A stretch of 49,510 nt of DNA, filler included, from Stramenopiles sp. TOSAG23-2 (lineage: Eukaryota), in the NCBI GenBank assembly GCA_900128395.1. It is 2 parts of 2 records of this genome, joined end to end, with 100 filler letters (N's around TTAATTAATTAA, not from the genome) between each part and the next. Parts side by side here need not be neighbours in the genome. Positions count along the whole stretch, not along the records: positions 1 to 24,808 come from LT649460.1; 1 more part is not named here. One strand, 5' to 3'. Below are positions 3,951 to 33,006 of the stretch, piece by piece. Under the pieces are notes generated by a model. The model made no database searches. It saw only the letters and a list, made by a program, of their open reading frames with translations, and was not told where the DNA came from. Position 1 is the stretch's first letter. Every line of letters starts with the position of its first letter. Made by a program: the position numbers and the translations under genes.

Positions 3951-6900
3951 ATGGCTACCGTTATACCAGTAGCAGATGATCCACATGGTAAATACAGTGA
4001 TAAAAACCACGGGATGTCGGACGCTCAGCACAAAGGTGCAAAAAACCATTGGAAACACGTAAAAGCCGAAGTAAAAGTTGGTATGTTTGCAAAAGCGACT
4101 AAACACAAACATAAAATTGCAGCGTGTCATTGCACTGTAATTGGTGTTGTTGTACTCATAGTTGTTTTAACTACTGCAGCTGTTGCAGCCGCAGTGTATA
4201 AAAACCAAGATAAACTATGTTCAAAGGGATATACAAAATTCTGCCCAAAACCAGAACCTAAAGCAAATACACAAGCAGGGAAAGCATTTCAATTTGGAAC
4301 AGTTTCAGTAATACCCCCAAAACACGATTCTAGGCGCCGACTATCAGCAAAGTTTTCGTTCACGCAAGCTATCGACAAATTAGCCCGTGATATAACGCTA
4401 CGTGGTGCAGCAAAAAGAAATGGACGGAAATTAGCTATTGACACAGCAACATTTGCAGAAGATTCTGATTATAATATGGCAACGACAACATTTTTCGTAT
4501 CGGAAGAATCTGCAGAAGCTATGAACATGGTTAGTATGATCATGTGCGACGTAGCACAATTGCGAGCGGCGTATTTTGTAAATCAAGGACCATACAAAGC
4601 TCAAGTAGATGAGAGTAAATGCACAGCCGATGGATCTATGATGGAATGGACCGTAGATGTAAAGACAGTTGGAGCAGCTGATTCAAGTAATACGTTAACA
4701 TGCGCTGGTGATAATGAACCTGCTGTAAATGAAAAAGGCATCGCCACCTTAACTTGTGGCTGGAATATTGACATTTGGTTCCAGACTGGAGATGGTATGC
4801 CAATCAATGTGCAAATGAAAATATGGAAACCTGTTACTATGTGCGAAACTAATTGTGAACCTTCCATGTCATCATGTACATGTGATCCTATTCCTAGGAA
4901 AGAACTACAATTTAAGGCAGGCCCTATGGATATGGGTGGTACTATGGTTAATATGATGGGAATTTTGCATCAAACTGAAAATGGAGAACGAGACGAATCT
5001 ATTAAATTTGGCCAATTTATGTCAATGGGGGATCAATCCATGACTCAAGGTGCTATACATTGGTAAGTATGCCACACACACACACACAATCTCTTTCTTT
5101 TTTGTTTTTAATCACATATCACTAACATGAACTAATATATATATATATATATTAAATTTATAATATAAAATATAAACATATATATATATATAATAAAGTG
5201 AGTACAATACTGGTACAGGTGCTGGAAAAGTTTGGAGTCAATCAACTGAAGGAGGACCAGGGTCTAATCCAACAACGTTCAAATTAGCTTTTGATGGTAC
5301 GTATGTAAAAAAAAGACAAAGATGGAACTGCACAATGTCTTGACATGTCCGACCCAAAGGAAGTTGGAAGTCAATATCAATTATACGATAATACTGGCAA
5401 AGCTGTTATTTTTGAAGAAGGTTTTCCAATCGAAGCAGAATCCGCAGACGGTACAAAATACGAAGCCTGGGCAGGTTATCATGGTTTGCATGTACATAGC
5501 AGAGGCGGTGAGGATTCGGAGGCACAATCGCTATTTGCCGATGGCAAGAAAGTGAATAAAATCAATTATGACGCCGCCTCCAGCAGAACGCCGTATACAT
5601 TAAAAGTTGACAACGGGCGTTTAATGAAAGTATCACGAAAAACAATAACATTAGGGGAGTTGACAGGTGTTACCATGCAAGTTGGTTGGGGTAGTGATGT
5701 GCCAAGAATTATGTTTAATGGAACAAAATTACTGAAAGTTGGTGCTATGGGTGGCATGTGTTTTGCACAAAGCCAAAATGGGCCCCCTACGCTTGTGAAT
5801 GGACCAACAGACCAGTTCAGTTGTATGTGTCAAGGTAGATCATCTGGCCAATTATGGGGTGGGTCAAATATGTGGATGGAAACTTTTCAAGATATATCCA
5901 ATCCAACACCATTCGAAGTTTCTACTGAAGCATTTCCATGGGGCATAGATGTTTCTGCTGGGGAAGGATCGAGTCGGTTTCAAGGAAGAATGAAATTAGA
6001 AGTTGATCAAATAGTAAGAATGTGGATTGCAGGACCATCTTATCAGGGCGGGGCATTTATTGAAGGCCAGAATGTTACTCAAGGAAATGCAGTTGGTGTA
6101 GTTTATACATCAACCCCACAATCATTTACCGGTATTACAAAGAACTATAATCATGCTGAGCAGAGGAAGTCATATGACTGCAGTGGCGCAAAACAAGATT
6201 ATTCGGGGATGATAGGTGACTCTGTGTATTCAGGAACAAAATTGATCCAAGATGCAAGTGGAGCAACGGGTATAGTTAAAGGTCATGGTCATTTTGGATG
6301 GCGAATACAATTTGAAACGACATCAGGAACTTTCGTCGCTAATCAACCTATAAGAATGGTCGATCCAATAGAATTGTCTGGGATGTTTGAGCACTTCAGT
6401 ATAAATGGTTCTTTCACTCCAACTAGTATTAGTCAGCAAGGGCATGAATTACTAGTGAAAGTTACATCGGGAACATTTGCACAAGGTTATTACGATGCTT
6501 CTGCAAGTCAATATGTACCTGCTGCCGATATATATGTTGCTGGAATTAATCAAAATGATTTGTGGGGTTTTCATAGGGAGCAAGGTAAACTTAAGAACCA
6601 ACCAAATGCAAATACAGAGATTACATATACGACTAGAAAATTAGTATTCCCAGATGATACAGTTCCAGCATTGAAATGTTATGACCGTTGTCCAAAAGCT
6701 ACAGGTCTTGCAAGTAGCTGTTCCAGCAATGAGGATTGTTACGAAGGAGAGCCTGGTATTCTAGCAGATGTGAATGTAGACAGTCAAGGTAGTGGATGCG
6801 TTCAGGAAAATCTAGCTTTTGCCATAACAAAAGGTAATGGTGCGTTTACCGGTGCAAGTATTACAGGAACAGTTGATAGCAATGGTAAATTAGTCTCCGC

Positions 6901-7798
6901 TGAAGTGGAAACTTTTGGTAATGGATGTACCAATGACGACACCATTAGCGTTACTGTTAGTGGATGTACAAGTGCACCTAGTGTTTCAGCAAGTTGCAGG
7001 ACAGGAACAGATGATTCTGCGACATATGGACAAGCAAAAACTTATACTTATGATGGTTATTCCTTGAAAGATGGAAATGGTGCTAGTGTAACTGTAGCTG
7101 CAGCCGAAAATTCGCAGTTGAGTTCCATTCACTCAGGTATTCTTTTTGAGTTAACAAACGACGCAAAAGTTAAAGGACAGTGCGAGCATGACACTAGCCA
7201 AGTTTGCTACCATGATCTTCGTGAAAAATTGGATACGTATTATGAGTGGGAAACACGTTCAGCATGGTCAAAACGTGTCAGTTTGATCGATGAGGATGCT
7301 GGAACTTCCGTGAAGTTTGATCAGCCAATGGCAGTTTCATACACACATTCCGGTACAGAATCGAACAGCGGCAAAAATTATCATGGTACTAAAATTTTAC
7401 TATCATATGAAAATGAATTACGCGGATTTCCACAATTGTGTCTCGACAAGACCACTTTACAGAAAGCAGATTGTGCACCGGATTGGTCCGGTATAACAAG
7501 AAATATGCCTGATTTTACCGTTCCAGATAATGCGATTTTTACAAATACAGATACTGGAACAGAATATGTTGCAAAAGCAGGGGAAGTTGAACAAATCATG
7601 AAAATGGCAAGTAGCGCAGCATCTTGTTCCAGTCTTGATACGGCAACAGTACCTGCACCAGTGACAATTGATTTATATCAGTCATTTGAACTTGGTTCCA
7701 AGCCTGATTTATCTGACAAACCAACAGTAGTCTTCAGCGGCATGCTTCTTAAAGAGCTGGAAGAAATTGAAGCAGAAAAAGCAGCTGCATCTGAATAA
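3951..7798 (+). CDS. Large (~1236 aa) Cys/Gly/Thr-rich type II membrane-anchored or secreted protein; exon 1 3951-5062, intron 5063-5198, exon 2 5199-7798 with an apparent 1-nt frameshift in the A8 run at 5307-5314
   Basis: ORFs 3951-5066 and 5345-7798 are joined by GTAAGT donor at 5063, ACTAAC branch near 5121 and AAG acceptor at 5198. Exon 2 reads CEYNTGTGAGKVWSQ...KLAFDGTYVKK, then continues DKDGTAQCLDMSDPK only after removing one A. N-terminal TM segment VIGVVVLIVVLTTAAVAAAVY. Confidence 0.75.
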
Positions 7799-8369
7799 GT
7801 TTGTTCAATATAATCATCTCATATCACATCATAAAAAAAAAACATCTTCAATCTGTAGGCCAAAACAGAGACCATTTTTTCTCTTATATATATGATATAT
7901 ATCACATGATTTGAAATGATATATTATCACACATGTAATATGTTGTAAAAGAAAAAATATGGCGGTTTGCAGTCTTTTTTTTTTATAATACGTACTCCTA
8001 AAATGTATTATATACATGAATACAAAAAAAAAATGTAAAGCATGTTTTCATCACCGAAGAGAGCTGGGAGAGAGGGTAAAATATATTTTCATATAAAAAA
8101 ATACTTCGAAATCGGCTATATGTTATTATTATTAATATATGGTATCCTATCCAATTTGTACTTGAAAGTGTGACATTAGATACATAAACACGAATCTTAA
8201 TTTATTGTGGACACAGCAAGTAAAATCTGTATATTATTATAGTCGAGAGAATTTTCTCTGCTTTTTTTTGATATTTTGTTTTACTCTCCTCTCTCCTCTC
8301 TCCTAAAATATTGAAACATGTTGTATATCAAAAAACATCTATTCTTTTTAAAAGATTCAAGATTTTTTT

Positions 8370-8473
8370 GTCAGCAAATGCACATGTTTTTAAATACAAA
8401 AAATGTCTTTTGATTTTTTACAAAAGATTACCTTTTTTTGTACAAACTATTTTTTTAATGTGCAATGCATCAT
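8370..8473 (-). promoter_or_regulatory. Eukaryotic SECIS element (type II-like, extended apical stem) in the 3'UTR of the selenoprotein gene
   Basis: Minus strand reads A-UGAU (8473-8469), GCAUUGCACAUU, AAAAAAA, ~65 nt apical stem, AUGUGCAUUUGC, UGAC (8373-8370). Ten Watson-Crick pairs in helix II; unpaired As lie 12 nt above the GA/GA quartet. Located about 60 nt after the TAA stop. Confidence 0.75.
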
Positions 8474-8534
8474 TTCTAATACATCATGTACATATGTACA
8501 CAATTAATTATATATTATTTAAATTAATTCATAT

Positions 8535-9275
8535 TTATTGAATCATGCAAGGCAAGACACGTCGTTTGCCACAGCATAATGCATGTCCTATACTATAACC
8601 TTTTTCATTCGGTCTACTATCAATTTTAATTGGATTTCCCGCATCGTATGCATCAACTACCATTGCCATATGTTTCACCGCATCATTTGGTTTAGGTCTT
8701 GGAGTATGATTTTTACCACCCCACGAATATAATGATTTTGCTGAAGAAAACGTTGAGTCTTCAACAGATTGTTTTTGTAATAATATGATAGCTGGTTGAG
8801 TCATGCCATGTGGATAATCATATTCAGGATGATTTGGATCAAAACCAACGGCGGGTCTATTTGTTTTATCAGGGTGCCACGCAGACGGTACAATATCAAT
8901 GTCAGCAAGTTTCAAATCATTTAAAACATTTGCCAATTTATTTGTTGTGTCTGTTAAAATGTCATATGATAAGTTCCATGTATTTCTAGCCATTTCAACA
9001 TGTTCATCTTTTTGTCCTAAAATTACAAATGGTTTGATGCTTTTGCTTTCAAATAAATTATTAGAATCACCAAAATCACCAGCCCACCGACGGCACATCG
9101 GTCACCAATTTCCCCTAACGTATAATAATAAAACATGAGACTCCTTATTAGCATTTATAACAATCTCCATGGGATCTTTTATTGGCACTCCAACATGCGA
9201 TGATTCTTCCACTGCACCATTTTCAGTGACGTCACTAGCAATAACATAATTTTTCTCTATTACTTCTGATGTCAT
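8535..9275 (-). CDS. Selenoprotein of AhpC/TSA (peroxiredoxin-like, thioredoxin fold) type with UxxC motif, 246 aa, Sec58, C-terminal CaaX
   Basis: Frame is open from ATG 9275 (MTSEVIEKNY...HVLLLYVRGNW), through a single TGA at 9104-9102, into the tracked ORF (PMCRRW...). RGxW-[C/U]-PxC is the AhpC/TSA-type redox motif. Downstream YPHGMTQPAIILL...LYSW...RP fits the family. SECIS-like element in the 3'UTR. Confidence 0.9.
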
Positions 9276-9903
9276 TCTAAATATTTTTTCCTAATTAGAT
9301 ATTATATATATATATATACAATAATAATGTCGATAGTATTATTCCTCGTATATATTATCCTGGGAGACTGATTTAGAATCTCTCTCATATATGAATACAT
9401 ACAGTATTAATACTTACACACATGTTGTTGTTTCCGATTTCCGATCTACTATATATCTATACTAGGTGTTATCTAAAAGATCTTAGATCGATCGATCTTC
9501 TTCTATCCAATATCCAATCCCGCCAGCAAAAAACATAATAATTATATTGTAATTTACCATATAAGTACATAATATACCAATATGATAGGGATACATTTTC
9601 ACTTAAAATGATGAAAAATCCCTTTTTTCCAATTTTTCCAAAATAATTTCTTCGAACTATTAATAATTCCGTCGAACCCATCATCATCCCATCATACCAT
9701 CATACCACCAAGAAGAAGAGAAGAAGTAGATATATATATAGAATGTAGAAAGTGATAGTCAATATCATATTTTACAAAAGACAAACATTATAACCAAAAC
9801 TATTAAACAGGAATATTACGATAATAATAACACCACAAAAAGATATCACCCCCCCCCCTTACGCCATTCATAGATATATAATATATATTCAATTTGATAT
9901 ATC

Positions 9904-10812
9904 ATGGACATACCATTAAATAAAGAAATTGAAGCAGTTGGAACCTGGAATACATTTCCACAACCAATTACAACACGTGGGGAAGCAACTATATTTCATA
10001 CCATCGATCCAAATGCACCACCTGGAAATAGAGGTGCTGGTGGTGGTGTATCTGGACCGATCCTAGCAGCAATGATGCAAGAATCGGCAACATTAGCAAC
10101 GATAACTGCTTTACGACATACAGAACAAATTATGGGTACGCTAGAAATTAATATAAATTATATACGACGTGCATCTGGAAAACAAATATTTGCCAAGGCA
10201 AATGTATTAAAAAAAGGTAAAACCGTATCATTTGTCGAAGTTGATATATATAATGATGAGGAACGTTTAGTATGCAATGGGCATGTGATCATTGGTATTA
10301 AATTATCAGGTGGATACGTAAAACCAAATAAATTTGAACATGAAAATTTTGAAAATATATTAAATATGTTTTGGAAAAGCAATGAACATTATGGATATGA
10401 ATTGAAATTAATGGAAAAGAAACGTGGTTATTTAAAATTTGAATTAAATATTGGTCAAGAAAGTGCAAATGTTGATTTGGATAATTTAGCACAAATATTA
10501 CCTGGTGCACATGATTTTGCATGTGTCAACTGCGTTAGTACAATGGTTGATTTTGAAAATGGTGAATATATGAATGGTACAATAAGTTTAAATTTATCTT
10601 ATTTAAAACCATATTTAAAATATGTTGATTTAAAAAGTGATAATAAAAAAATTGAAATTATATCAAAAGTTGAAAAAAAATTAAAACCAGAGGAACAAAT
10701 TGCATTTGCTAGTTGTGAAATTATATCAAATAATGAAGTATTAGCAACTGGACGTATTGTTTATAGCGTAGCAAAAGAAAAAGAAGAATATAATGGTGCA
10801 TTTTCATTGTAG
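9904..10812 (+). CDS. Double hotdog-fold acyl-CoA thioesterase (PaaI-like), 302 aa
   Basis: Two repeats of hotdog motifs: GGVSGPILAAMMQE...GTLEININYIRRA...ANVLKKGKTVSFVEVDIYNDEERLVCNG, and GAHDFAC...GTISLNLSYLKP...IAFASCEIISNNEVLATGR. Confidence 0.85.
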   Translation: MDIPLNKEIEAVGTWNTFPQPITTRGEATIFHTIDPNAPPGNRGAGGGVSGPILAAMMQESATLATITALRHTEQIMGTLEININYIRRASGKQIFAKANVLKKGKTVSFVEVDIYNDEERLVCNGHVIIGIKLSGGYVKPNKFEHENFENILNMFWKSNEHYGYELKLMEKKRGYLKFELNIGQESANVDLDNLAQILPGAHDFACVNCVSTMVDFENGEYMNGTISLNLSYLKPYLKYVDLKSDNKKIEIISKVEKKLKPEEQIAFASCEIISNNEVLATGRIVYSVAKEKEEYNGAFSL

Positions 10813-10999: not shown

Positions 11000-11200
11000 C
11001 ATTTTAGGTTTGTATTTACGAGTATTTCAGGAGAATTTTTAAACATAAGATATATCTACATTCTACATAGACATTGTATCTCTCCAACTCATTGAAAAAA
11101 AAAATCATTTTAGGTTTGTATTTACGAGTATTTCAGGAGAATTTTTAAACATAAGATACATCTACATAGATATTGTATCTCTCCAACTCATGAAAAAAAA
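11000..11200. repeat. Imperfect tandem duplication, unit ~100 bp
   Basis: cattttaggtttgtatttacgagtatttcaggagaatttttaaacataagata...ctccaactca occurs at ~11000 and ~11106. Confidence 0.9.
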
Positions 11201-11212
11201 TCAAAAATCAAA

Positions 11213-11299
11213 CGCAGCAAAGGTGGACTTGAACCACTATTTAATGAAAAATCTATAGGTTTGAAGCCTACACTCCAGACCCCTGAAGCTCATCGCTGC
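11213..11299 (-). tRNA. tRNA-Sec: tRNA-Sec (UCA), copy 1, 87 nt
   Basis: GCAGCGATGAGCTTCAGGGGTCTGGAGTGTAGGCTTCAAACCTATAGATTTTTCATTAAATAGTGGTTCAAGTCCACCTTTGCTGCG. 9-bp acceptor stem with U.U pair, long D-stem with 4-nt loop, anticodon loop CU-UCA-AA (11264-11262), long variable arm, 4-bp T-stem GUGG/CCAC, discriminator G. This is the eukaryotic 9/4 tRNA-Sec fold. Followed by T-runs (Pol III terminator). Confidence 0.97.
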
Positions 11300-11391
11300 C
11301 CATTTATAATTATTTCTCAATGGATATATATGCAATACTATTTGCATGTTATTAGGAAATGTAAATTTTATGTATATATAAGAAAATCAAA

Positions 11392-11478
11392 CGCAGCAAA
11401 GGTGGACTTGAACCACTATTTAATGAAAAATCTATAGGTTTGAAGCCTACACTCCAGACCCCTGAAGCTCATCGCTGC
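11392..11478 (-). tRNA. tRNA-Sec: tRNA-Sec (UCA), copy 2, identical to copy 1
   Basis: Same 87-nt sequence shifted by 179 bp; followed by TTTGATTTT. Confidence 0.95.
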
Positions 11479-11932
11479 CCATTTATAATTATTTCTCAAT
11501 GGATATATATGCAATACTATTTGCATGTTATTAGGAAATGTAAATTTTATGTATATATAAGAAATGAGGATTTAACAGGGACATAGCATCTAGCATTCAC
11601 ATACCACAGGAATTATCCATTTCAATCATTTATAATGGCACAGTATTGGATTTCGTGGATTTCATAATTTGGTACCAAAGTATGTATATTTTCGGTTATA
11701 ACTACTTTTTTAAAATCATATCTATCCTTAGATGTAATATTATTTCCGAAAGATTCTCAAAACGTTTCCTCCCAGCTTTTGAGTGAGATTTTGATGTTTT
11801 TAAACAACGGGAATGGAACTATTGCTATATTGACTAAAGTATGTATATTTTCGAATACTACTACTTTATAAAATAAAATCAATATAGCAATTTCCTATTA
11901 TTTCCGAAATAATTCCATAAAAAGCGAGGAGT

Positions 11933-13887: not shown

Positions 13888-16800
13888 TTAAAACAATGTA
13901 CTACCAAACGAAACTGAACGTTCTTTTAATACAGTCGTATGTCCCCCATCACCACTACTAGTAGTAGTATTACCATCATCAACGTTTTTCTTCTTCTTAT
14001 CATTATTATTATTATTATTATTATTCTTTGACATTACATTTAATTCATCTTCAATTTCAGTTAAAACTTTTAATATATAATCAATGGAAGGACGCATATT
14101 TTGATCATGTGACCAACATGCTTTTGCTAATTCGCAATATTGTGAATACATTATCGAACGTATTTTATCACTCATTGTCGTATCACTACCATCATCATTT
14201 TGTTTTTCTGCATCTGTTTCAAAGATTATATTATCTTTAAATGTTGGACGTAATTTGTGTTCACATACTTTTGTCATTAAATCAATAATCGATGTAGTGT
14301 CCTCACTGAATGGCACACCACGTTCCTAAATACATGTATATATGTATATATATAAATAAAATAAAAATGTTAGAGAAAGAGTCATTCAACACAATAATAA
14401 ATCGATTTATAAAATAAACCTACCATAATTTCCCACATGACCAAACCAAATGCATAAATATCAATACGTTGATCATAAAATCGACCAACCATTACTTCTG
14501 GTGCAATCCATGCTGGTGAACCACACCTCGTAGACAACAAGAAACTTTTCTCCAATGTTGAGCTTAAACCAAAATCACATAATCGTACGGATAAATTTTC
14601 AATACTTGTATTGATATTTTTACGCAAATATTCAGTTAATAATTCATTTGAATTAATTTTTTGTGTTTCGGTTTTATTACTACTGTTATTGCCTTGTTCA
14701 TCATCATCATCATCATCACTACTACAACTGCTACTGCTACTACTACTATCATCTTTGTTACTATCCTCCTCCTCGTCATCATTGCCATCATTTAATTTTT
14801 TCTTCATAAATCGTTGTAATTGAAGATTTTTAAAAATATGTTTATGTGGATGATCGTCTACTTTCTTCTTAGCCCTTTTTTTATATCCAATAATAATATT
14901 TGCAGTTTTTAAATCACGATGTACAACAACAGGTTCTTTATTATGTAAATATTTTAAACCGTTTGCAATATCTTTTGCAATTTTAATTTTCAATTTAAAG
15001 GATAATTGGATTTTATCGTTTGATAAAATATCACGTAAACATCCATATTTCATATATTTACTAACTAGCCAAACTTCATTTTGTGTTGCAACCACACCAA
15101 CAATTTCAACTACATTTGGATGTACTAATGATTGCATTAATTCAATTTCTTTTTGCATCAATGCAAGCTCACGTTCACTTTTTTCAGTATGTGTTCTACG
15201 ATAACATTTTATTGCAACTTTCATGCCTCTAACTTTGCACTTATAGGTAGTACATGCATGGCCAGATGATAAAATTTGTTTTTTCTTTAAAACAGGTATT
15301 TCCCATCTTTCAAGTGGTTTAATATTATTTTTTTTCACTTTTGTATCATATGGTAACGATAATTGCGATTCTTGATCTGTACTATTATTATTATTATTAT
15401 CATTATTATTGCTGATATTATTGTCGCTACTATTAATCAAATATGATGAAGAAGAAGATCTTGTAGCAGCACTAGTAAGAATACTACTAGATGTGTTGAT
15501 AGAATAATTATTATCATTTTGCTGTATTTGATGATTTTGTGATAATGGTTGTGCTAACTTTGTTTCTGTATTATTATTACGTAACCACATATTTGTAGCT
15601 TTTCTATTTTTTTGCCATTGTTGCAATTTTAAAATCAATGTTTGTACCATATTTTTTTTAACCGGTTTAATTAAATAATCATCTGCACCAAGTTCCATGG
15701 CTTTATTGATATCGTTTAATTCTTCCACAACGCTGACTAGTATGATTGGAATATGTAATAATAATATATTACTTTTAACTTGTTGGATAAATTCAATACC
15801 ATTGACACCTGGCATATTTTTATCACACATAATTAAATCATATTTGTATTGATTTTCAAGCAATTCTTGCAATGCATCATTAGCACTTGAACAACATTTT
15901 ACGACGTATCCACAAACTTCCAATACATGTCGTAATGCTAAACGATGGAATGCACTATCATCAATTACTAGTACAGTAATATCCGAAGTTTCTTTATATA
16001 CTTTAGTTGGTATTTCTCGTTCTGGAGTTTGTCGTGTTAGAATATTATCAACCACTTGTATTTCTACCACTGATGATGATGATGCTTGCGCTATGGTTAC
16101 TGGAACAACTATTGACGACGGTGAAGGTTGTTGAATAGTATTTGCAACATGTGGCATATTATTGTTACTATTGTTTCTACTATTGCTACCGCTACTCATA
16201 CTACTACTACTACTACTACTACTAACACCGCTATTACTGTTAATAATACTATTGTTACTAATCCCCATCACATTATTATTTGTAGTACCATTAAACGTTT
16301 CTTTTGTTTCTACGTTGTTATTATTATAATTTGTTGTGTGAAGAACATTTGCTATTATGCAACTGCTATTATTAATGTTATTTGCATGTGCGGATTGAAG
16401 ATTTAATTTAATATCTTCAAGACTGCTATTACTATATAACAATTTATTCGTATCTTCCAGACTACTAGTACTACTGCCAGTACTGCCACTACTATGAACT
16501 CTTTGTTTTTGTTTTTGCTGGACCTTTTCTTTCAATATATGTAAATCATATTTTGTTTGCAATTTTGTTAACATATCTAATGCAAGTGGTCGTTTATTTA
16601 TCGTTTTATCGATACTTTTTTGAATTAAATCAATAAAAAATTGTGGTGATTTTGTAGAGTTACTTGATGGCATCTCTGGGCGTTCCCCAATTTTATATTT
16701 ATATGGTACAACTCTAGGATCATGATATGTTTGTTCTGAAAAAGGTAACCTCCGTGTTAACATTTCCCAAAAGACAATTCCAACACTAAATATATCACAT

Positions 16801-18104
16801 CGCATTAATTCATTACCTGTAAACACTTTATTTTGTTTAAATCGTTCTGGGCATGTCCAATATAAACTAAATTCTTCTTTTTCTTTGTCATTCATTGGTG
16901 GTAACATATGGTGATGGTTGCTGTCGCCATTGTTTGTTGCTGCTGGTGGTAATACAACATTTGGGTTTGCGATCATAGTTGCTAATGTACTCTTTTTCGT
17001 TGTTGTTGTTGAAGACGTCGCCGTCGTCGTTGACCATATGTCATTTTTCATTTTATCTTTTGATCGATCCCATTCAAATGAATGTGTAAAATCAATTAAT
17101 TTACCATGATGATGTGTATGATCTAACATAATATTTGGTGATTTAATATCACCATGTATGATGATAATATTGTTTTTTTTCACCCGTCTTTGTTGATTGT
17201 CGTTGCTGCTGCTGCTGCTGCTGTTGTTGTTGTTGTTGTCCCTATTATTATTAGTAGTAGTATCATTATTTATGATATTATCATGATAAAAATAATTATG
17301 AAGGTACGTAATTGCTTGTAAGATATCAATACTAATTTTCAATGTTTGGCCATAAAAATCTAAATCAGGTAATTTTTTATTATTTAATCTATCATATAAT
17401 GTACCACCATTTAAATATTCTAAACATATGTATTTATTTACGTTGTTTTTTAATACATTTGAATTGCTTGACATTTTTTCAATCGATAATCCTAGAAACG
17501 TAATGATATTTGGATGTCGAATACGTTTAAAAAATTTCAATTCATTTTGCAATTGTGAATTTTTAGAATGTGTTTTCATGACAATCGGTGTACCATTCCA
17601 TTTTACTTTATATACGGTTGATAATGATGTATGTGATAAAATATATTTCGTTTTGTAATCAATATTATGTAATATTGGTGAGGTAGTAGTATGTGGTTGT
17701 TGTAAAATCGATGTTGTTGTATTGTTGTCGTCATTGTCGTTTTTATTCCTGTTGGAAGTAAAAGTCTTCTTCGAGTTGTATTTATCATTTTGATTGACAT
17801 GTAAACTTGATGTTTTGACGGTATTTAATTTACCTAACGTTGTTGCTGTTGTTGTTATAGATGGTATAGAATTTGATAACGATGACGATGTTGGCATTGA
17901 CAATATATTATTATTATTACTTGTTGTAATATTATTATTATTATTATTATTGCTTGTAACTATTTGGTGATTTATTATATCATCATTATTTTGACATATA
18001 TTAGTTTGGATATTATCATGATTCTGTGCAGAACTATTATAATTATTATTATTATTATTATTATTATTATTGGATGTATTCAACGTACTATTTTTGCAAC
18101 CCAT
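13888..18104 (-). CDS. Dual TKL-type kinase with central response-regulator receiver domain (kinase-REC-kinase), ~1372 aa; exon 18104-14424, intron 14423-14326, exon 14325-13888
   Basis: Kinase 1: HPNII, HGDIKSPN, DFT, WTCPE, DIFSVG. REC: VLVIDD...DLIMCDKNMPGVNG...ILVS...GADDYLIKP. Kinase 2: VAIK, HRDLKTAN, DFG, WIAPE, DIYAFG. GTAGGT donor and TTTAG acceptor join WEIM|ERGVPF in frame. N-terminus MGCKNS. Confidence 0.92.
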
Positions 18105-18506
18105 GATGTGTTGTATGTGTATATATATATATATAACAATAAGAGGTTTGTTGGTTTAATATATACGTGCTTGAAACGTGTATGTATTTTATTTATGTCT
18201 GAAAATATTTTATAAATGAAATTAATACAGAAATGATTCTCTGTGTTGTTATATATTAGATATATCCTCAAAATTATTAATAATAATAATAATAATATAT
18301 CTTGATTTAATTATATAATTATATTATATATACAATAAAACGTTATATCTATATGTGATTGTCGTCGTTGTATGTGAATATATTCTTCGCCTATAAAACC
18401 GTGGTGTACTCTTCTACATCAGTAGTGTGACATACAGTATATCCAAATACAAAGACTTTCTATCTATACATCTATCTATCTCTACAACAATAATACATAT
18501 ATATAT

Positions 18507-18720
18507 ATCCACACAGTAATATTATTATTTATAAAAATGGTCGAACTCCACAAGGCACCTAAACATTAAGGAATTTTTAATTAAAAACTACCAATTTTAT
18601 TTAAATTAAACGATTAATAATAGTATTTTTTGGTCAATTTTAATCTTTTTTGGTAAATGCCTTAATTGTTAGGTGCCTGGTGGAGTTCGACCTTTTTAAA
18701 AATAATATTACTGTGTGGAT
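18507..18720. mobile_element. MITE-like foldback element, ~214 bp, with ~65-bp imperfect terminal inverted repeats
   Basis: Left end atccacacagtaatattatt...ggtcgaactccacaaggcacctaa...ttaagg is the reverse complement of right end ccttaa...ttaggtgcctggtggagttcgacc...aataatattactgtgtggat. AT-rich non-coding core. Confidence 0.75.
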
Positions 18721-19337
18721 GTAGTAACATCCAAAATCAATCAATCAATCGCTCTTTATGTGTGACGTGTGACTCAGGCACTCACTCAGGCACTCACTAT
18801 ATTATTTATATGCTAAATATAAATAGGGATCGACTAATCTGTGTGCGACAGTAGTGCCTGTGATCCATCCATCAACTTGAAGTGCAATCCATCCTGGTTT
18901 ATGTATTTAAATGGAATGCAAGATGCAAAAGGTGCAAGGTGCAAGGTGCAAGGTGCAAAGGTACACACAGTCTTTTTTTGAGGCCTTTTATGCTGTTATA
19001 ATACTTTTATTGGACTATTTATGCTTGTATGTCTGTTTTTTTCGTTTTGCAACTTTTCTTTTTTTAAAGTGCAAATTGCAAAAGTGCAAAAATGTACAGG
19101 TGACCGTATTTTTTTTAGTGAGAAAAGGAATATGATATATATGTAATATATGGAATACGATTATTTTTTTGAAAATAATATATGTGATACGAAGATATAC
19201 GAAGTATAAATATTACACGGCACACGGCATAAAATATATGTAGAATATTTTATTTACAAAAAATATAACAACAATGATGGTGCTAATAATAGTAATTTAA
19301 CTACAGTTGCTGAATTTAACACAGTTGCTGATGATCA

Positions 19338-19686
19338 TACTGATGGTCATAATAATAGTAACATTTCAGCTGATGATGATGGGTGTGGTGGTGATGTGGT
19401 GATGGTTTCAGATGATGATGATGGTTGTGGTGATGCATGTGATACATGTGGTGGTATATGTTCATGGGAACATATACCACCAGCTATATTACGTGAGAGT
19501 ATATTAAAAAATTTAATTAGTTATATGTCTCATAATAAAGTTAAGTAACATTTCAGCTGATGATGATGGGTGTGGTGGTGATGTGGTGATGGTTTCAGCT
19601 GATGATGATGGTTCTGGTGATGCATGTGATGCATGTGGTGGTATATGTTCATGGGAACATATACCACCAGATATATTACGTGAGAG
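19338..19686. repeat. Duplicated ~140-bp segment within an orphan coding-like fragment; each copy carries a perfect 15-bp-arm hairpin
   Basis: agtaacatttcagctgatgatgatgggtgtggtggtgatgtgg...atattacgtgagag occurs at ~19357 and ~19544. Confidence 0.85.
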
Positions 19687-19980
19687 GTGAATTTACTTGC
19701 AACCTTCTCTAAAGGTTGTTGATTTTTACATTTTTAATTCCCCCAAGCAGATATGTTTTGTTTTGAAAAATTGATAAAATGCCTTGTTATAATATAGAAA
19801 GCATGCGATTGTGAAAATATCTAGATATTTTTTATCGATATTATATCGTCTTCAAATCGAGAGAGGTATAATATATAATTATACATGTGTAAGTAATGTG
19901 TATTAAATTTATATATCTTGGAAATGTTAATCCTGTAATCCACACAAATCTACTTCATTAAACCAGCAATTGTATTAGAG

Positions 19981-20319
19981 ATGGAAAACGAGTTAAAAAC
20001 ACAACATCATGTAAAACCTAGAACTGCAATGGACCGGGATTATACTTGGTTCTTAGGATGGAAAATGTGTAATACTGGTACTAGTAGTGGAAAAGTTGCA
20101 AGGTACAATCGTGATGCATTCAAATTATTGTATGGTACTGATGATGAATTTCAACCTGGTACAGATGTTGATGTGGCAAAAATATATTATCAACAAATTA
20201 CATATAAATCAACTGGTTCAAATAAATATGCTGCAACTGGAACGCAAAATGAGCGAAATTTATTAAATCATGTAAAAAACACATTGTTTTGTGATAACCT
20301 CCACCGAAGATATACATAA
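19981..20319 (+). CDS. Hypothetical protein or gene fragment, 112 aa
   Basis: ATG-initiated ORF with protein-like composition; no recognisable motif. Confidence 0.35.
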   Translation: MENELKTQHHVKPRTAMDRDYTWFLGWKMCNTGTSSGKVARYNRDAFKLLYGTDDEFQPGTDVDVAKIYYQQITYKSTGSNKYAATGTQNERNLLNHVKNTLFCDNLHRRYT

Positions 20320-20718
20320 TTTTAATATTATATGAATTATATCTAACTGTAGATATATGTAAAGAATTTGCAAATAACTGGCTTGATGTTGGTGCAAATG
20401 TACATTATATAAAGCAAAAGAGAATGCCAAAACATCAGGATTGAAACTGATGGATGTACTAAAACCTTAGTGTAAATATCAGGGTTTCTGTGCTGTGTCC
20501 ATGTCCTAACGCTATAGCAATAGTAAATTTAGCAGCTAAATAGCCACGGGTAGTGTCTAGTATAAATTATATAGGAAAACTCGTTTTTCTTTGTGAAATG
20601 CTCGCGTGCATTTCAATGTTTGGATATGAAAAATAATAAATAAATAAATTTACATATTCAACATGCACACATATTAGTAATATAAAAAAAATGAAAGGGT
20701 CCACTCTCCTCTCTCTGT

Positions 20719-20970
20719 TCAAAGCTTTGCTACAATTCCTGTTTCCTGTTCACCTGGTAGTTTCGGTACACCAACACCTTTTAAATGTTGTCTTGATGGA
20801 TCATTAGCTGCCATTCCTTCATATGTTGAAGGAACACCGGCTAATTTACAACAATTTTCAACATATGTTTGTGTTCTTAATCCTAAAAATTCTCTCTCAC
20901 CTTTTTCTCTCGTAGCTTCATGTAATTGAATTTCATCTTCCATGGTTTTATAAGTGGGAGTTTGATATTT
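20719..20970 (-). pseudogene. Orphan C-terminal gene fragment ending in PTS1-like AKL; resembles the tail of a flavin-containing monooxygenase
   Basis: IKLP/TYKTMEDEIQLHEATREKGEREFLGLRTQTYVENCCKLAGVP...IVAKL. Frame is closed upstream by TGA TGA TAA and overlaps the end of the 20883-21455 ORF. Confidence 0.4.
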
Positions 20971-21455
20971 TCTTTATCATCACTAACGGATAGACCAATC
21001 CATGCATTGATTGGAAATTTTGCTGGGGCAATGGTTCCACTTGGATCTGTCCATTCAATAGTAATACGACTCGCCCATGATCCTTTTGGTCCATTTGTAC
21101 TTGATGCAAACCATACGGTGCCGGTAATATTGACTGGTGGTGGGGATGGTTTATTTGGTACATTAAAATTACAATCGGCACTACAATAGGTTGAATCGAC
21201 TTGGCACATAACTACCCATTTCTGATCGTTTCCATGCGGTTTAATAGTCATCGTACCATCCGATGAAATAGATACTTCTTTTTGATCACCATCATGCATA
21301 TCAGCAAATATATTATGAAATGGAAATAAGGATTTTTCACATGTTGTTTGTAATTTATTATTATTACTTATTTTGATATCATTTGTTGCAACGACAACAG
21401 CAATCACTGATGCAATAATTGCAACAAGGGCAATTATATTGACTCGTTTCATCAT
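20883..21455 (-). CDS. Secreted beta-rich hypothetical protein (~190 aa; C-terminus uncertain)
   Basis: Signal peptide MMKRVNIIALVAIIASVIAVVVA followed by a globular region FADMHDGDQKEV...CSADCNFNVPNKPSPPPV...WTDPSGTIAPAKFPINAW. Confidence 0.7.
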   Translation of the reverse strand: MMKRVNIIALVAIIASVIAVVVATNDIKISNNNKLQTTCEKSLFPFHNIFADMHDGDQKEVSISSDGTMTIKPHGNDQKWVVMCQVDSTYCSADCNFNVPNKPSPPPVNITGTVWFASSTNGPKGSWASRITIEWTDPSGTIAPAKFPINAWIGLSVSDDKENIKLPLIKPWKMKFNYMKLREKKVRENF

Positions 21456-22006
21456 ATTTATTAAATTATACGTTCTTTCTTTTTCGAATATTGTGGCCTT
21501 TCCTGTTTCTATTCTCTGTTCTTACAGTTCTGATGCATTTTTTGTTCTTTTTGGAACACAAAAAAAACACAAAATTTTTTTATGATTTTTTAAGTAGTTT
21601 ATCTTCTATCTTCTTGAGATCACTTTTCGGTCGCTTTTCGTAAATGTAAATATTCAATAATTAACACGTGTTATAATTGAAATACTGACGATTTATTTTT
21701 ATTCAGTATTTTTTATAAAATAAAAATATAAAAAAAAAAATTTATTCATAGATAGAAAATTCAATATTATATACTGTAGTAAAGTTATACATATACTTGT
21801 AATACTTGTACCACATCTTGCTATACCATGATTCATTATATATATATTACATCCAACCATGAACAAATCAAATTGCATCCAGATATAATATTGTTTATCA
21901 TTGCAATATATACATATTATATATGTATTATATTTTACATCTATCATATTCTTACACCATGTATCTATATCATCATATAGTCGCTGACTTAGAATTATTT
22001 GATTTT

Positions 22007-22580
22007 TATATATAATAATAACGTGTAGCAGTATGGGAATTTGTGGAAAACTGATTTAATCCATATTTGGTATTATTTCGGATAATACTAGAAAGTAGAC
22101 GTTAAAATTGACAGACAGTGTTTTTATACATACAAGACAAATATATGTGGGAAGGTGGGAGAAGGGAATGGTAGATATGTGTGATCTATATCTATCCGTT
22201 TGGAATATTGTACATATATAGAACAATAGAGAGAATAAAACGTTATCAGTATTTCTCTGATATATATAATAATAACGTGTAGCAGTATGGGAATTTGTGG
22301 AAAACTGATTTAATCAATATTTGGTATTATTTCGTATAATACTAGAAAGTAGACGTTAAAATTGACTGACAGTGTTTTTATACATACAAGACAAATAAAA
22401 AATAAATATGTGGGAAGGTGGGAAGGGAATGGTAGATATGTGATCTATATGTATCCGTCTAGATTATTGTACATATATAGAACAATAGAGAGAATAAAAC
22501 GTTATCAGTATTTCTCTGTCTTATTGTACATATATAGAACAATAGAGAGAATAAAACGTTATCAGTATTTCTCTGTCTGT
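22007..22580. repeat. Imperfect ~253-bp tandem duplication plus an additional ~58-bp sub-duplication
   Basis: tatatataataataacgtgtagcagtatgggaatttgtggaaaactg... occurs at ~22007 and ~22261; attgtacatatatagaacaatagagagaataaaacgttatcagtatttctctg occurs three times. Confidence 0.9.
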
Positions 22581-22702
22581 AATAGGTTTTCTTTTTTTTT
22601 TGAAAGTTATTTGAAATTTTTATTTTTACCATCATCACATTTTTGATAATTTATTAGTATATAATATTATCTTAAAAAAAAACATATTAATAATATAGAA
22701 GC

Positions 22703-23898
22703 ATGGAAAAAATACAACCAACTGGGTTTCAACATTTATTAAAAAGTAAACGACATGCACCAGAAAATAGACGAAAAATACATCATTCCAATTCACCGAA
22801 GAAAAAATTATACAATAACAATAATGATAATAATAATAATAATACAATGTTAGATACAACAAATATTAATAAAAATACATCTTCCCATCGTTTTGTACGT
22901 ATGTTAATAGATGCTGTTAATAAAATGCATGATAGTAAAATAACACATGAAAAAATAAGTGAATATAATTTAGCATTGATATTATGTCATAAAATCAATG
23001 CGTTGTTTACCGTACAACAAACATTTGTAGATGCAGAAAAATTAGCACAAACTATGTATAGTGAAGAATTTGCTAATTGTATAATAGATGTAAGTATATA
23101 TATATTAAAATAAATCAACAACATCAAAAATATAAAACTAACTTTATTTACTATAACTTTATTTTATATATATATATATCGATATATTAGATATTAATTG
23201 AAGGTGGTGATTTAGCATATATACCTGGTCAATTATTAGTATATTTAACAATGAATGATAATTGTGTTGATTATTTATTAAAAGATGATATTATTGCAGT
23301 TATATGTGGCGTATTACGTGTTGGGGAAAGACGTTTTAGTACGATTGGTATTACTATATTTAGAAATTTAGCTGATTTTTGTAATTCAAAAGTATTTTTT
23401 GCATCAAAAATGCGTAGTCGAACAAATGTATTGAAATTAATGTTACAACGATATGTAAATGATGGTAATAATAGTAACAACAACAACGTTGATGATGGTA
23501 ATAATAGTAAGAACAAGAAGGATTCAAATATTGACATCGATCAAACGATGTATAGTTTTTATAATACAAATATTGTGTTAGAAATATTAATCTTAATTGA
23601 ATATATTATTTCAGCAACTACATCACGTTCCCATATCGATGAATTACGTGATATTGTACAAGAAACCATTATTATCAATCAACAACGATCAATAGAGGAA
23701 GAAGAAGAACAAGAGAGTAATAGTAATTTTAATAATAACAACGACATGATATTTTTAAATAATCAAGAGGTATTACAAATGGCATATAAAATAACAAAAA
23801 ATGCTGATAATCGTAAACATCATGTTACAAAAGATGTTGATTATGAAAAAGCAAATAAATCAAGAAGGAAAGATGGTTATGCAGCAGCGAATATTTAA
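22703..23898 (+). CDS. Helical (ARM-like) hypothetical protein, ~364 aa; exon 22703-23089, intron 23090-23190, exon 23191-23898
   Basis: GTAAGT at 23090, CTAAC near 23138 and TAG at 23188-23190 give an in-frame join CIID|ILIEGGDL...MNDNC of the two tracked ORFs. Confidence 0.75.
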
Positions 23899-31641: not shown

Positions 31642-33006
31642 TCAATCAAAGAATCGTTGTGGCATTCTTCTTTTTCGACTATTATTACAAAACCGCAATC
31701 TCAAATAACTACCTTTGCGAAAAGCTGATATAATTACTAATATTCCAAATACAAATGCAATGACTTGAAAATATTGTATTGACTTATCAATATGAACATG
31801 AAGATCATTTTTATTTACAACTTTCATCCCTGTTTTAGAATCTATTTCTGTTAATGTCCATATGTCATTAAAATATAATGATGGCCCATAACTTTCACCG
31901 CCAAATAATACATATGTATTCAATGTAGAAATATAACTCATCGTATGTCTATATCTATGTATTGGGATCTCTTTTTTTTTCTTTTTTATGACTGTAATTT
32001 TATTCCAACTATTTTTAATTATATCATATCTCCACACATCGCCAAAACATTTACATGCAGGTTTACAGTTGGCCCCACCATATAAAATTAAGCCTAATTT
32101 CTTATTACTATTGTGTAAAACTAAACTTGAATGGCTTAATCTACCTGGTGAAACAAATGATGATTTTATTTGTTTCCAATTTTTCATATTTATATCATAC
32201 AACCATAAATCATTCAATGATTGGGAACATGAGAATCTTAATTTACACTTTAGAGTATTTAATTTATATGTCCCACCAAATATATACATATTATGTTTTG
32301 ATATAACAGATGAATGTCCATAACGTGGTTGTGGCATCATATGTGTATTTATATCATTATTATTGTTAACAAGATCATTTTGTCCTCCTCTAACAATTAT
32401 TTTTGTCCAAAAATTTCCATCTATATCATATTTATAAAGGTCATTATTTACAAAGGTTTTATTGTTTATTCCAAACGGTGCTATCAATCCTCCAAAAATA
32501 AGCATTGAATTGCCTTCTACAATATACGAAGCTGTATGGCCAGAACGTGGTGCCGGTACAAAATTATGATTTGCATTTTTCTTTTGAATCCATTCAAAAT
32601 TTTCCAAAAACCATAAATCGTTCATATATGAACCAAAAATATAGCTGCCTCCAATACCTTTATTTTTCATTTCTTGATTTGATTGATATCTTAAACCACC
32701 ATCATTACCGCCAAATAAAATAGAGACAGAATTTTTCGTTGTAATCAACGATGCGCTGTATCTTGCAGAAGGTGTCTCTTTGCTTTTAATTTCATTGACC
32801 TCCATAGTTTCTAAATTAATTAACCATGAATCTTTCAACCAAGTTGGTTTACCTTTATTATAATTATATCCACCAAAAATCAATAAGCATTGTGCATTAT
32901 TATTATTATTATTATTTATTTTACATTTATTAACTGATGTAGAGTGACTGTACCGAACTGCTATTTTATCCGATTTTACTTGCTGTTGCCAACTCCATTC
33001 TGTCAT
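31642..33006 (-). CDS. Kelch-repeat beta-propeller protein with C-terminal TM helix, 454 aa
   Basis: Six R-x-[SG]-H/A...IFGG...ND[LI]W repeats; TM YFQVIAFVFGILVIISAF followed by a basic tail. Confidence 0.9.
   Translation of the reverse strand: MTEWSWQQQVKSDKIAVRYSHSTSVNKCKINNNNNNNAQCLLIFGGYNYNKGKPTWLKDSWLINLETMEVNEIKSKETPSARYSASLITTKNSVSILFGGNDGGLRYQSNQEMKNKGIGGSYIFGSYMNDLWFLENFEWIQKKNANHNFVPAPRSGHTASYIVEGNSMLIFGGLIAPFGINNKTFVNNDLYKYDIDGNFWTKIIVRGGQNDLVNNNNDINTHMMPQPRYGHSSVISKHNMYIFGGTYKLNTLKCKLRFSCSQSLNDLWLYDINMKNWKQIKSSFVSPGRLSHSSLVLHNSNKKLGLILYGGANCKPACKCFGDVWRYDIIKNSWNKITVIKKKKKEIPIHRYRHTMSYISTLNTYVLFGGESYGPSLYFNDIWTLTEIDSKTGMKVVNKNDLHVHIDKSIQYFQVIAFVFGILVIISAFRKGSYLRLRFCNNSRKRRMPQRFFD

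Follow-up and report, generated by a model that had tools for sequence, protein, structure and literature searches.

An in-frame UGA predicted to encode selenocysteine in an AhpC/TSA-domain redox protein of the uncultured marine eukaryote Stramenopiles sp. TOSAG23-2

The window analysed here is a 49,510-nucleotide stretch of DNA from Stramenopiles sp. TOSAG23-2 (GenBank assembly GCA_900128395.1), made of parts of two records joined by 100 filler letters, with positions 1 to 24,808 taken from LT649460.1. On its minus strand lies a complete coding sequence (8535..9275) in which an in-frame TGA (9102..9104) is predicted to be read as selenocysteine (Sec), followed by a stem-loop (8355..8478) that is a candidate selenocysteine insertion sequence (SECIS) element; two genes for selenocysteine tRNA (tRNA-Sec) are located 2.1-2.4 kb away. 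The coding sequence begins at ATG 9275-9273, the first ATG past an in-frame TAG at 9293-9291, and comprises 246 codons including Sec58, after which comes a TAA stop at 8537-8535. Fifty-seven sense codons ending in ...LLLYVRGNW lead to the TGA (9104-9102), which is followed by CCG ATG TGC, and the frame after the TGA is that of a 187-aa open reading frame (ORF) at 9098..8535 with the same TAA. The TGA codes for the first residue of a U-P-M-C redox motif, with Cys61 (9093..9095) as the second residue of UxxC. An in-frame TGA joining two open frames is thereby confirmed, and the coordinates, frame and quoted peptide in a preliminary description of the locus are exact on minus-strand translation. 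A rough hand estimate gives p ~0.01 for a 57-codon open frame arising at 30% GC, and the upstream frame is thus more than chance.

The read-through protein (246 aa, P0001), analysed with C in place of U, passes the gathering cutoff for Pfam AhpC-TSA (PF00578; 32 bits against a cutoff of 26, E = 1.3e-7), and the match spans residues 42-118, including sequence to either side of the TGA. When 1.84 billion representatives were searched exhaustively with HMMER, 23 relatives in total came up at E ≤ 1e-3. Eighteen of them reach the N-terminal region and form the column alignment; P0013 and P0018, which are dubious proteins of multiple repeats, are among the 18. Cys occupies the column of U58 in every one of them, within the motif (F/Y)YRGxW-C-PxC, and conservation is 90% or more at W57 and C61. 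In a further alignment (A6), Cys61 is invariant. The named relatives are bacterial entries annotated as "peroxiredoxin-like family protein" or "AhpC/TSA family protein", and there are also two Cys forms from eukaryotes (Gymnochlora, Amoebidium). The preliminary description had held that standard gene callers would drop the catalytic residue, and the entries of the closer relatives are in fact truncated at the same spot: database models of five of the six close homologues start at Met60 with MC[KR]RW, while P0004 starts otherwise. P0011 (35% identity) begins MCKTW, likewise at Met60, and the 57-aa N-terminal piece stands in the database as a separate entry, P0010.

One scan of metagenome contigs identified four orthologous loci, L001, L002, L003 and L004, at 99, 65, 68 and 50% identity, respectively. 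All four are co-linear with the window gene and have TGA at the same column with the frame open on both sides, so that the codon is identical in five of five DNA sequences when the window is counted. The corresponding motifs are RGNW-U-PMC, -PLC, -PMC and -GIC; the L002 locus has Leu in place of the window's Met60 and is without a restart codon. The base that follows the UGA is C in the window, L002 and L003, and G in L004. Of the last 12 codons before the TGA, ten differ between the window and L002, nine of the ten synonymously, and these changes include two different Ser codon families as well as Leu and Arg synonyms. A TGA conserved amid synonymous change classically marks a UGA that is translated and under selection, and the comparison of these sequences suggests that codon 58 is one. 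The expectation that homologues would carry Cys or Sec at this column was borne out both by the aligned relatives (Cys in 18/18) and by the orthologous loci (TGA in 4/4). With the patterns tried, no relative was found in viral contigs and no close relative in prokaryotes, represented by one genome each of 185,579 species. In L003 (530-1070), similarity to the window gene ends after ...AYAAG and is followed by leucine-rich-repeat-like coding sequence, with no C-terminal tail or 3' untranslated region (UTR); an assembly chimera, an intron and a genuine rearrangement are all possible causes of this break.

Assembled contigs from four RNA libraries of four studies (two oligo-dT, one poly-A) tile positions 8293-9248 with no splice joint. 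Five contigs cover 9102-9104, and all five read TGA with no other letter; the preliminary description had named TGT, TGC or TGG in place of TGA, or an intron over the codon, as grounds for abandoning the selenocysteine reading, and neither a substitution nor a joint occurs in any of them. One of the five, X16 record 6, is a strain variant with a synonymous CCG>CCA change right after the TGA and a Gly66>Cys replacement. The 3' UTR on the minus strand, taken to the limit of the RNA-library contigs, extends over 8293..8534. Contigs of X13 (record 1, 8299-8476) and X16 (record 4, from the poly-A library, 8293-8497) cover the proposed SECIS in full, their ends lying at 8299 and 8293, respectively. 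Positions 8100-8292 and 9249-9600 are without contig cover in the RNA runs, and these gaps were not counted as evidence on transcript ends.

TGA is used as an ordinary stop elsewhere in the window, where it ends six of the 22 ATG-initiated ORFs of at least 150 aa, and reading through it adds only 1-17 codons in these cases. None of the remaining long ORFs has an in-frame TGA, and only the selenoprotein gene joins an upstream frame. A variant genetic code with general reassignment of TGA was excluded on the basis of these six stops. The machinery for decoding Sec is represented on the same contig by two tRNA-Sec genes with anticodon UCA, at 11213-11299 and 11392-11478 on the minus strand, each found by ARAGORN and each scoring 64.4 bits with Rfam model RF01852 (gathering score 47, E = 6e-11). 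Both have a 9-bp acceptor stem, a 4-bp T-stem and a long extra arm. The two genes form a perfect 179-bp tandem duplication (11121-11568, minus strand), the unit of which also takes in some 90 nt 5' of the gene, where TATA-like and ATGCAAAT-like motifs occur, as well as a T-run on the downstream side.

The candidate SECIS element in the 3' UTR (8355..8478, minus strand) has AUGA at 8473-8470 and GA at 8372-8371, and its fold is the unconstrained minimum free energy (MFE) structure of the trimmed stretch. The arms of helix 2 lie at 8468-8458 (5') and 8385-8374 (3') and cover 11-12 positions, consisting of 3 bp, a small internal loop and 7 bp; they are followed by an A-rich unpaired run (8457-8450) and a long apical helix or hairpin (8447-8387). 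SECIS-shaped elements start 61 nt after the stop in the window and L001, 36 nt after it in L002 (element at 644-716) and 65 nt after it in L004. Once a competing upstream segment is omitted, the SECIS register is the unconstrained MFE structure for the window, L001 and L002. The helix-2 arms of the window and L002 are letter-identical (9/9 pairs) despite 65% protein identity and a differing apical part, with an extra C in the 5' arm of L002 that is faced by a U>G change on the opposite side. Between the window and L001 (99% identical), all differences in the SECIS region fall in unpaired parts. The helices of the L004 element differ entirely in sequence, but the element is built to the same plan and has textbook form-2 geometry. 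Its helix 1 is 9 bp long (720-728/786-794), AUGA stands at 730-733 and GA at 783-784, and between these two come a roughly 12-bp helix 2, a run of AAAA and a mini-hairpin of 5 bp. Its stability gives z = -4.4, and none of 200 shuffles was as stable. About 170 nt downstream of this element, L004 contains a direct tandem duplication of about 55 nt (940-1055), each copy of which holds a GC-rich inverted repeat (hairpin). We consider it likely that the stem-loop in the window is a SECIS element.

Several results weigh against this assignment and against the reading of codon 58 that it supports. No Rfam SECIS model matched in window positions 7800-9600 or 8290-8540, in L001-L004 or in L004 690-810 at E ≤ 5-10, although a scan at E ≤ 10 over 4227 families is demanding and its null on SECIS is weak negative evidence. 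The window, L001 and L002 have nine helix-2 pairs in common, which are invariant and provide zero covariation; the pair count is limited to these three sequences, as MAFFT alignments of the SECIS candidates with L004, and of whole 3' UTRs, misregister the arms. A covariance model (R1) built from the same three sequences is too sequence-specific for a fair test on L004, where with filters off it finds 726-788 at a non-significant 9.6 bits (E = 3.6), and with default filters it recovers the training sequences alone and not L004. Helix 1 is weak in the window and L002, the apical part in the window (~70 nt) is longer than that of a textbook SECIS, and the L002 fold does not exceed shuffles in stability (z = -0.9). 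The MFE structure of a longer stretch of the window favours a competing 5' hairpin, which in L001 is disrupted by a 3-nt deletion. As for the RNA data, X16 record 6 is the only one of the five contigs covering the codon that extends 31 nt or more beyond it in both directions, and assembled contigs indicate presence in RNA libraries rather than proving transcription, strand or transcript ends.

A weak R1 match (24 bits, E = 0.17) also lies at 31783-31872 of the window (minus strand), where a perfect 10-bp helix is flanked by AAUGA and UGA. It sits in the C-terminal coding part of a Kelch-repeat ORF (33006..31642) that ends with a TGA stop and gains 17 codons by read-through, and this SECIS-shaped stem is probably due to chance. 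A second selenoprotein gene was looked for in the ORF-poor gap at 18100-23300, and nothing convincing was found there.

We conclude that UGA58 is predicted to be read as selenocysteine within the redox active site, with a probability of roughly 0.88. This upholds the inference made in the preliminary description, and the support comes from the uniform Cys column, the TGA shared by all four orthologous loci, the normal use of TGA as a stop elsewhere and the two tRNA-Sec genes. If UGA58 were instead a real stop, the gene would begin at Met60 and consist of the 187-aa ORF, the frame upstream of it being unrelated or decayed, or else the locus would be a pseudogene. That is the model standard gene callers give for five of the six close homologues, Met60 comes straight after TGA-CCG, and no curated SECIS model matches; however, the 9/10 synonymous codon differences indicate purifying selection on the upstream frame up to the TGA, and the frame is conserved down to 50% identity. 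The 187-aa product would moreover miss strand 1 and the first redox residue, L002 (with Leu after U-P) has no codon at which to restart, and retention of the TGA in all five DNA sequences and all five RNA contigs is unlikely for a decaying gene. Taken together, these points make a genuine stop extremely improbable.

Read-through that inserts a residue other than Sec, whether by a variant code (Cys or Trp) or by a near-cognate tRNA suppressing one leaky UGA-C, would account for a Cys that restores the canonical WCPxC, and it would suit both the UGA-C context of the window, L002 and L003, which is a leaky one, and a SECIS that is only a candidate. It is nevertheless very unlikely, given that L004 has UGA-G rather than UGA-C, that TGA terminates 6/22 long ORFs with no other in-frame TGA among them, and that two tRNA-Sec genes are present. 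Furthermore, TGT and TGC are one step from TGA, yet TGA is invariant where nearby synonymous sites are saturated. An assembly or sequencing error, or a TGA within a spliced intron, has a negligible probability. The window seemingly derives from low-input sequencing of an uncultured organism (80-100% of its sampled words occur in three small runs that carry the label of one organism, two of them flagged as a possible source), and low-input data are error-prone, but the same TGA is found in four independent metagenome contigs and in the RNA contigs of four studies with no joint, and both the Pfam domain and the predicted fold run continuously across it.

An AlphaFold2 model of the read-through protein, computed from a 19-row alignment (mean predicted local distance difference test score, pLDDT, 77; predicted template modeling score 0.75; 127 residues at pLDDT ≥ 90), has a thioredoxin-fold core; residues 1-31 at the N-terminus are disordered, an insertion at ~131-150 is of low confidence and the tail is floppy. 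In the model, U58 comes right after strand 47-53, where helix 59-69 begins. Pro161 (8793..8795, minus strand), which is invariant in the family alignment within a YPxGMxQ-P-A block, directly precedes strand 162-166 in a conserved Q-P161-A, and we take it from the model to be the cis-proline of the thioredoxin fold. An insertion of about 40 residues (about 121-160) holds the HPEYDYPHGMTQPA block. Foldseek matched the model to AhpC2 (5ovq), BCP (3hjp), PrxQ (5iow) and ResA (3c71, 2f9s) at 8-15% identity and target-normalised template modeling (TM) scores of 0.5-0.67. A profile search of the PDB ranked BCP-type peroxiredoxins (2ywn and 2cx3, E ~1e-12) and ResA (E 1e-8 to 1e-10) among its matches. 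Redoxin (PF08534) fell just below its cutoff (22.7 versus 26.6 bits). Assignment to the SelL-related redox proteins (NF040769) was rejected at 16.3 bits against an NCBIfam cutoff of 120, as was assignment to SelU/PRXL2 (PF13911), which gave no match at E ≤ 0.01.

Peroxiredoxins carry the motif PxxxTxxC and a catalytic Arg. In the profile alignment to 2ywn and 2cx3, R54 falls on the Pro column, U58 on the Thr column, C61 on the peroxidatic Cys and P161 on the catalytic Arg (the Arg of the peroxiredoxin KRAVF block), so that of this catalytic set only C61 is retained. The features of a thioredoxin or ResA-like active site are present, with W57-U58-P-M-C61 directly before helix 59-69 and P161 before a strand. 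Because the Pro, Thr and Arg columns are occupied by R54, U58 and P161, the protein appears, from its sequence and model, to be no canonical peroxiredoxin, but rather a peroxiredoxin-scaffold protein wired as a CxxC/cis-Pro thiol-disulfide oxidoreductase. The preliminary description of an AhpC/TSA thioredoxin-fold protein with a UxxC site therefore stands with respect to domain, fold and motif, and the profile columns speak against an AhpC peroxiredoxin of the catalytic type.

The C-terminal tail (8538..8576, minus strand) reads C234-C-G-K-R-R-x-x-x-C243-M-I-Q, a CaaX-type box after a Cys pair and a basic patch. Cys is found at position -4 from the end in all eight family members with a C-terminus, which end in CMIQ, CAIQ, CVIQ, CQIQ or CVVM; C234, G236 and C243 are invariant, and CC-G-K-R-R mostly precedes the CaaX box. 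CaaX-like boxes also end two of the Cys-form relatives. Under the CaaX rule, Cys at -4 is followed by two residues that are mostly aliphatic and by a last residue that farnesyltransferase accepts. Because the conserved tail fits this rule, farnesylation is predicted, and the tail is a probable farnesyl (plus perhaps palmitoyl) membrane anchor with a Ras-like polybasic second signal. The translated protein has no hydrophobic N-terminal signal, and we infer that the selenoprotein would be cytosolic and membrane-tethered.

In the mechanism proposed here, UGA58 would be decoded by the organism's tRNA-Sec under the direction of the SECIS stem-loop, which is located some 60 nt downstream of the stop codon in the 3' UTR. 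Sec58, at the start of helix 1, would act as the attacking nucleophile and Cys61 as the resolving residue, with the cis-Pro P161 opposite. The selenolate of Sec58 would attack a peroxide or disulfide as its oxidised substrate, and the selenenic acid or mixed intermediate would be resolved by Cys61 to give a selenenylsulfide, which a thiol system (thioredoxin or glutathione) may then re-reduce. A farnesylated, perhaps palmitoylated tail would hold the enzyme at the cytosolic surface of a membrane. The roles of the two active-site residues would be exchanged in a peroxiredoxin-style peroxidase, in which Cys61 attacks the peroxide and Sec58 resolves. C61 does align with the peroxidatic Cys of BCP-type peroxiredoxins, and peroxiredoxins are the best fold matches, but the other catalytic columns of these enzymes are lost (R54, U58, P161) and CxxC reductases of the ResA type match nearly as well. 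The N-terminal residue of CxxC is the nucleophile in thioredoxin-fold enzymes, and Sec normally occupies the nucleophile position; on balance, attack by Cys61 is unlikely.

Selenoproteins of the peroxiredoxin-like or AhpC type with UxxC are already in print (PMC3753652, PMC7539508, PMC2398784). In marine prokaryotes, "Prx-like 1" pfam00578 selenoproteins with UxxC are tabulated for the GOS selenoproteome as 225 Sec and 2,740 Cys forms (PMC2398784, Table 2). The present protein resembles that group, as it is described there, in its AhpC-TSA domain, its UxxC with Sec first and its marine origin. Compared feature by feature, it differs in being encoded by a eukaryotic gene, whose stem-loop lies in the 3' UTR and not, like a bacterial SECIS, immediately past the UGA, and in having nuclear neighbours (Nup93), the 40-residue insertion (~121-160) with its HPEYDYPHGMTQPA block and a CaaX tail. 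Eukaryotic AhpC selenoproteins with UXXC are reported from Monosiga, Emiliania, sponges and other protists (Mariotti 2013, PMC3753652), and a UxxC "AhpC_b" with only prokaryotic Cys homologues is reported from Thalassiosira oceanica (Jiang 2020, PMC7539508). By description only, these share with the window protein the AhpC/TSA domain, thioredoxin fold, UxxC motif, Cys homologues and a 3'-UTR SECIS (here a candidate). Unlike AhpC_b as reported, the present family has eukaryotic Cys homologues (Gymnochlora, Amoebidium), and the published accounts of AhpC and AhpC_b, in the parts that describe these families, do not mention a CaaX tail.

Among proteins of known structure, ResA/TlpA (PDB 3c71, 2f9s, 1st9) share a peroxiredoxin-like thioredoxin fold, W-C-x-x-C at helix 1 and the cis-Pro, which is predicted in the window protein (target-normalised TM score ~0.64). 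ResA is, however, a bacterial, extracytoplasmic, N-terminally anchored Cys protein of ~12% identity, whereas the window protein is predicted to have Sec and has a C-terminal lipid-anchor motif and no signal peptide. BCP and PrxQ (2ywn, 2cx3, 3hjp, 5iow) provide the best profile and fold matches, with C61 on the peroxidatic-Cys column, and differ in the catalytic Pro, Thr and Arg columns, which are R54, U58 and P161 in the window protein. SelL-related proteins (NF040769) and SelU/PRXL2 (PF13911) are likewise families of selenoproteins from aquatic organisms that have a peroxiredoxin-like thioredoxin fold and carry the redox motif in the same structural place, although the motif is UxxU in SelL and UxxC in the window protein. 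MIEN1, a prenylated protein of the SelW-like Rdx family, is described as a thioredoxin-like redox protein tethered to membranes via a CaaX box (PMC6738349); by that description it belongs to another fold subfamily, has Cys rather than Sec and is an animal protein. Among the papers listed in literature searches on prenylated selenoproteins and on protist selenoproteomes, there was no lipid-anchored selenoprotein and no paper naming the present family. That the gene represents an undescribed eukaryotic selenoprotein family of uncultured marine protists, the first selenoenzyme with a Ras-like tail, and a membrane-surface analogue of GPx4 acting as a selenol peroxidase or reductase on a peroxiredoxin-like scaffold, is a tentative suggestion that we consider rather doubtful as a whole.

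The window has a GC content of about 30% and also occurs in marine metagenomes and metatranscriptomes. It contains nuclear eukaryotic genes, including those for Nup93/Nic96, a protein with PX and GOLD domains, Kelch and MORN proteins and a hybrid of receiver and protein-kinase domains. A search with the Nup93/Nic96 protein gave three close relatives only. The hybrid protein (14382-18104, minus strand) is a 1240-aa protein matching Pkinase (1.5e-61, five matched stretches) and Response_reg (4.6e-23); its runs of Asn and Ser are very long, and its architecture is that of an unusual two-component/kinase hybrid. Between the selenoprotein gene and the tRNA-Sec pair lies a divergently oriented neighbour (9904-10812, plus strand), whose 302-aa product contains a 4HBT thioesterase domain (E = 8e-12). 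Two plus-strand ORFs, of 817 aa (5345-7798) and 371 aa (3951-5066), have no Pfam match and lie in a stretch with a noticeably higher GC content, 39% against ~30% in its surroundings.

Apart from the following points, the gene is an ordinary example of a well-known phenomenon. Every entry for this family that was found in the databases stops short at the Sec codon, so that public protein sets miss the catalytic residue and strand 1, and the family consequently looks like an orphan without a Pfam domain; read-through restores an AhpC/TSA redox enzyme from this apparent orphan. If the CaaX tail is truly prenylated, the protein would be a lipid-anchored selenoenzyme. The locus indicates the use of selenocysteine in an uncultured, AT-rich marine eukaryote, and its tRNA-Sec genes and candidate SECIS can seed a search for the rest of the organism's selenoproteome.

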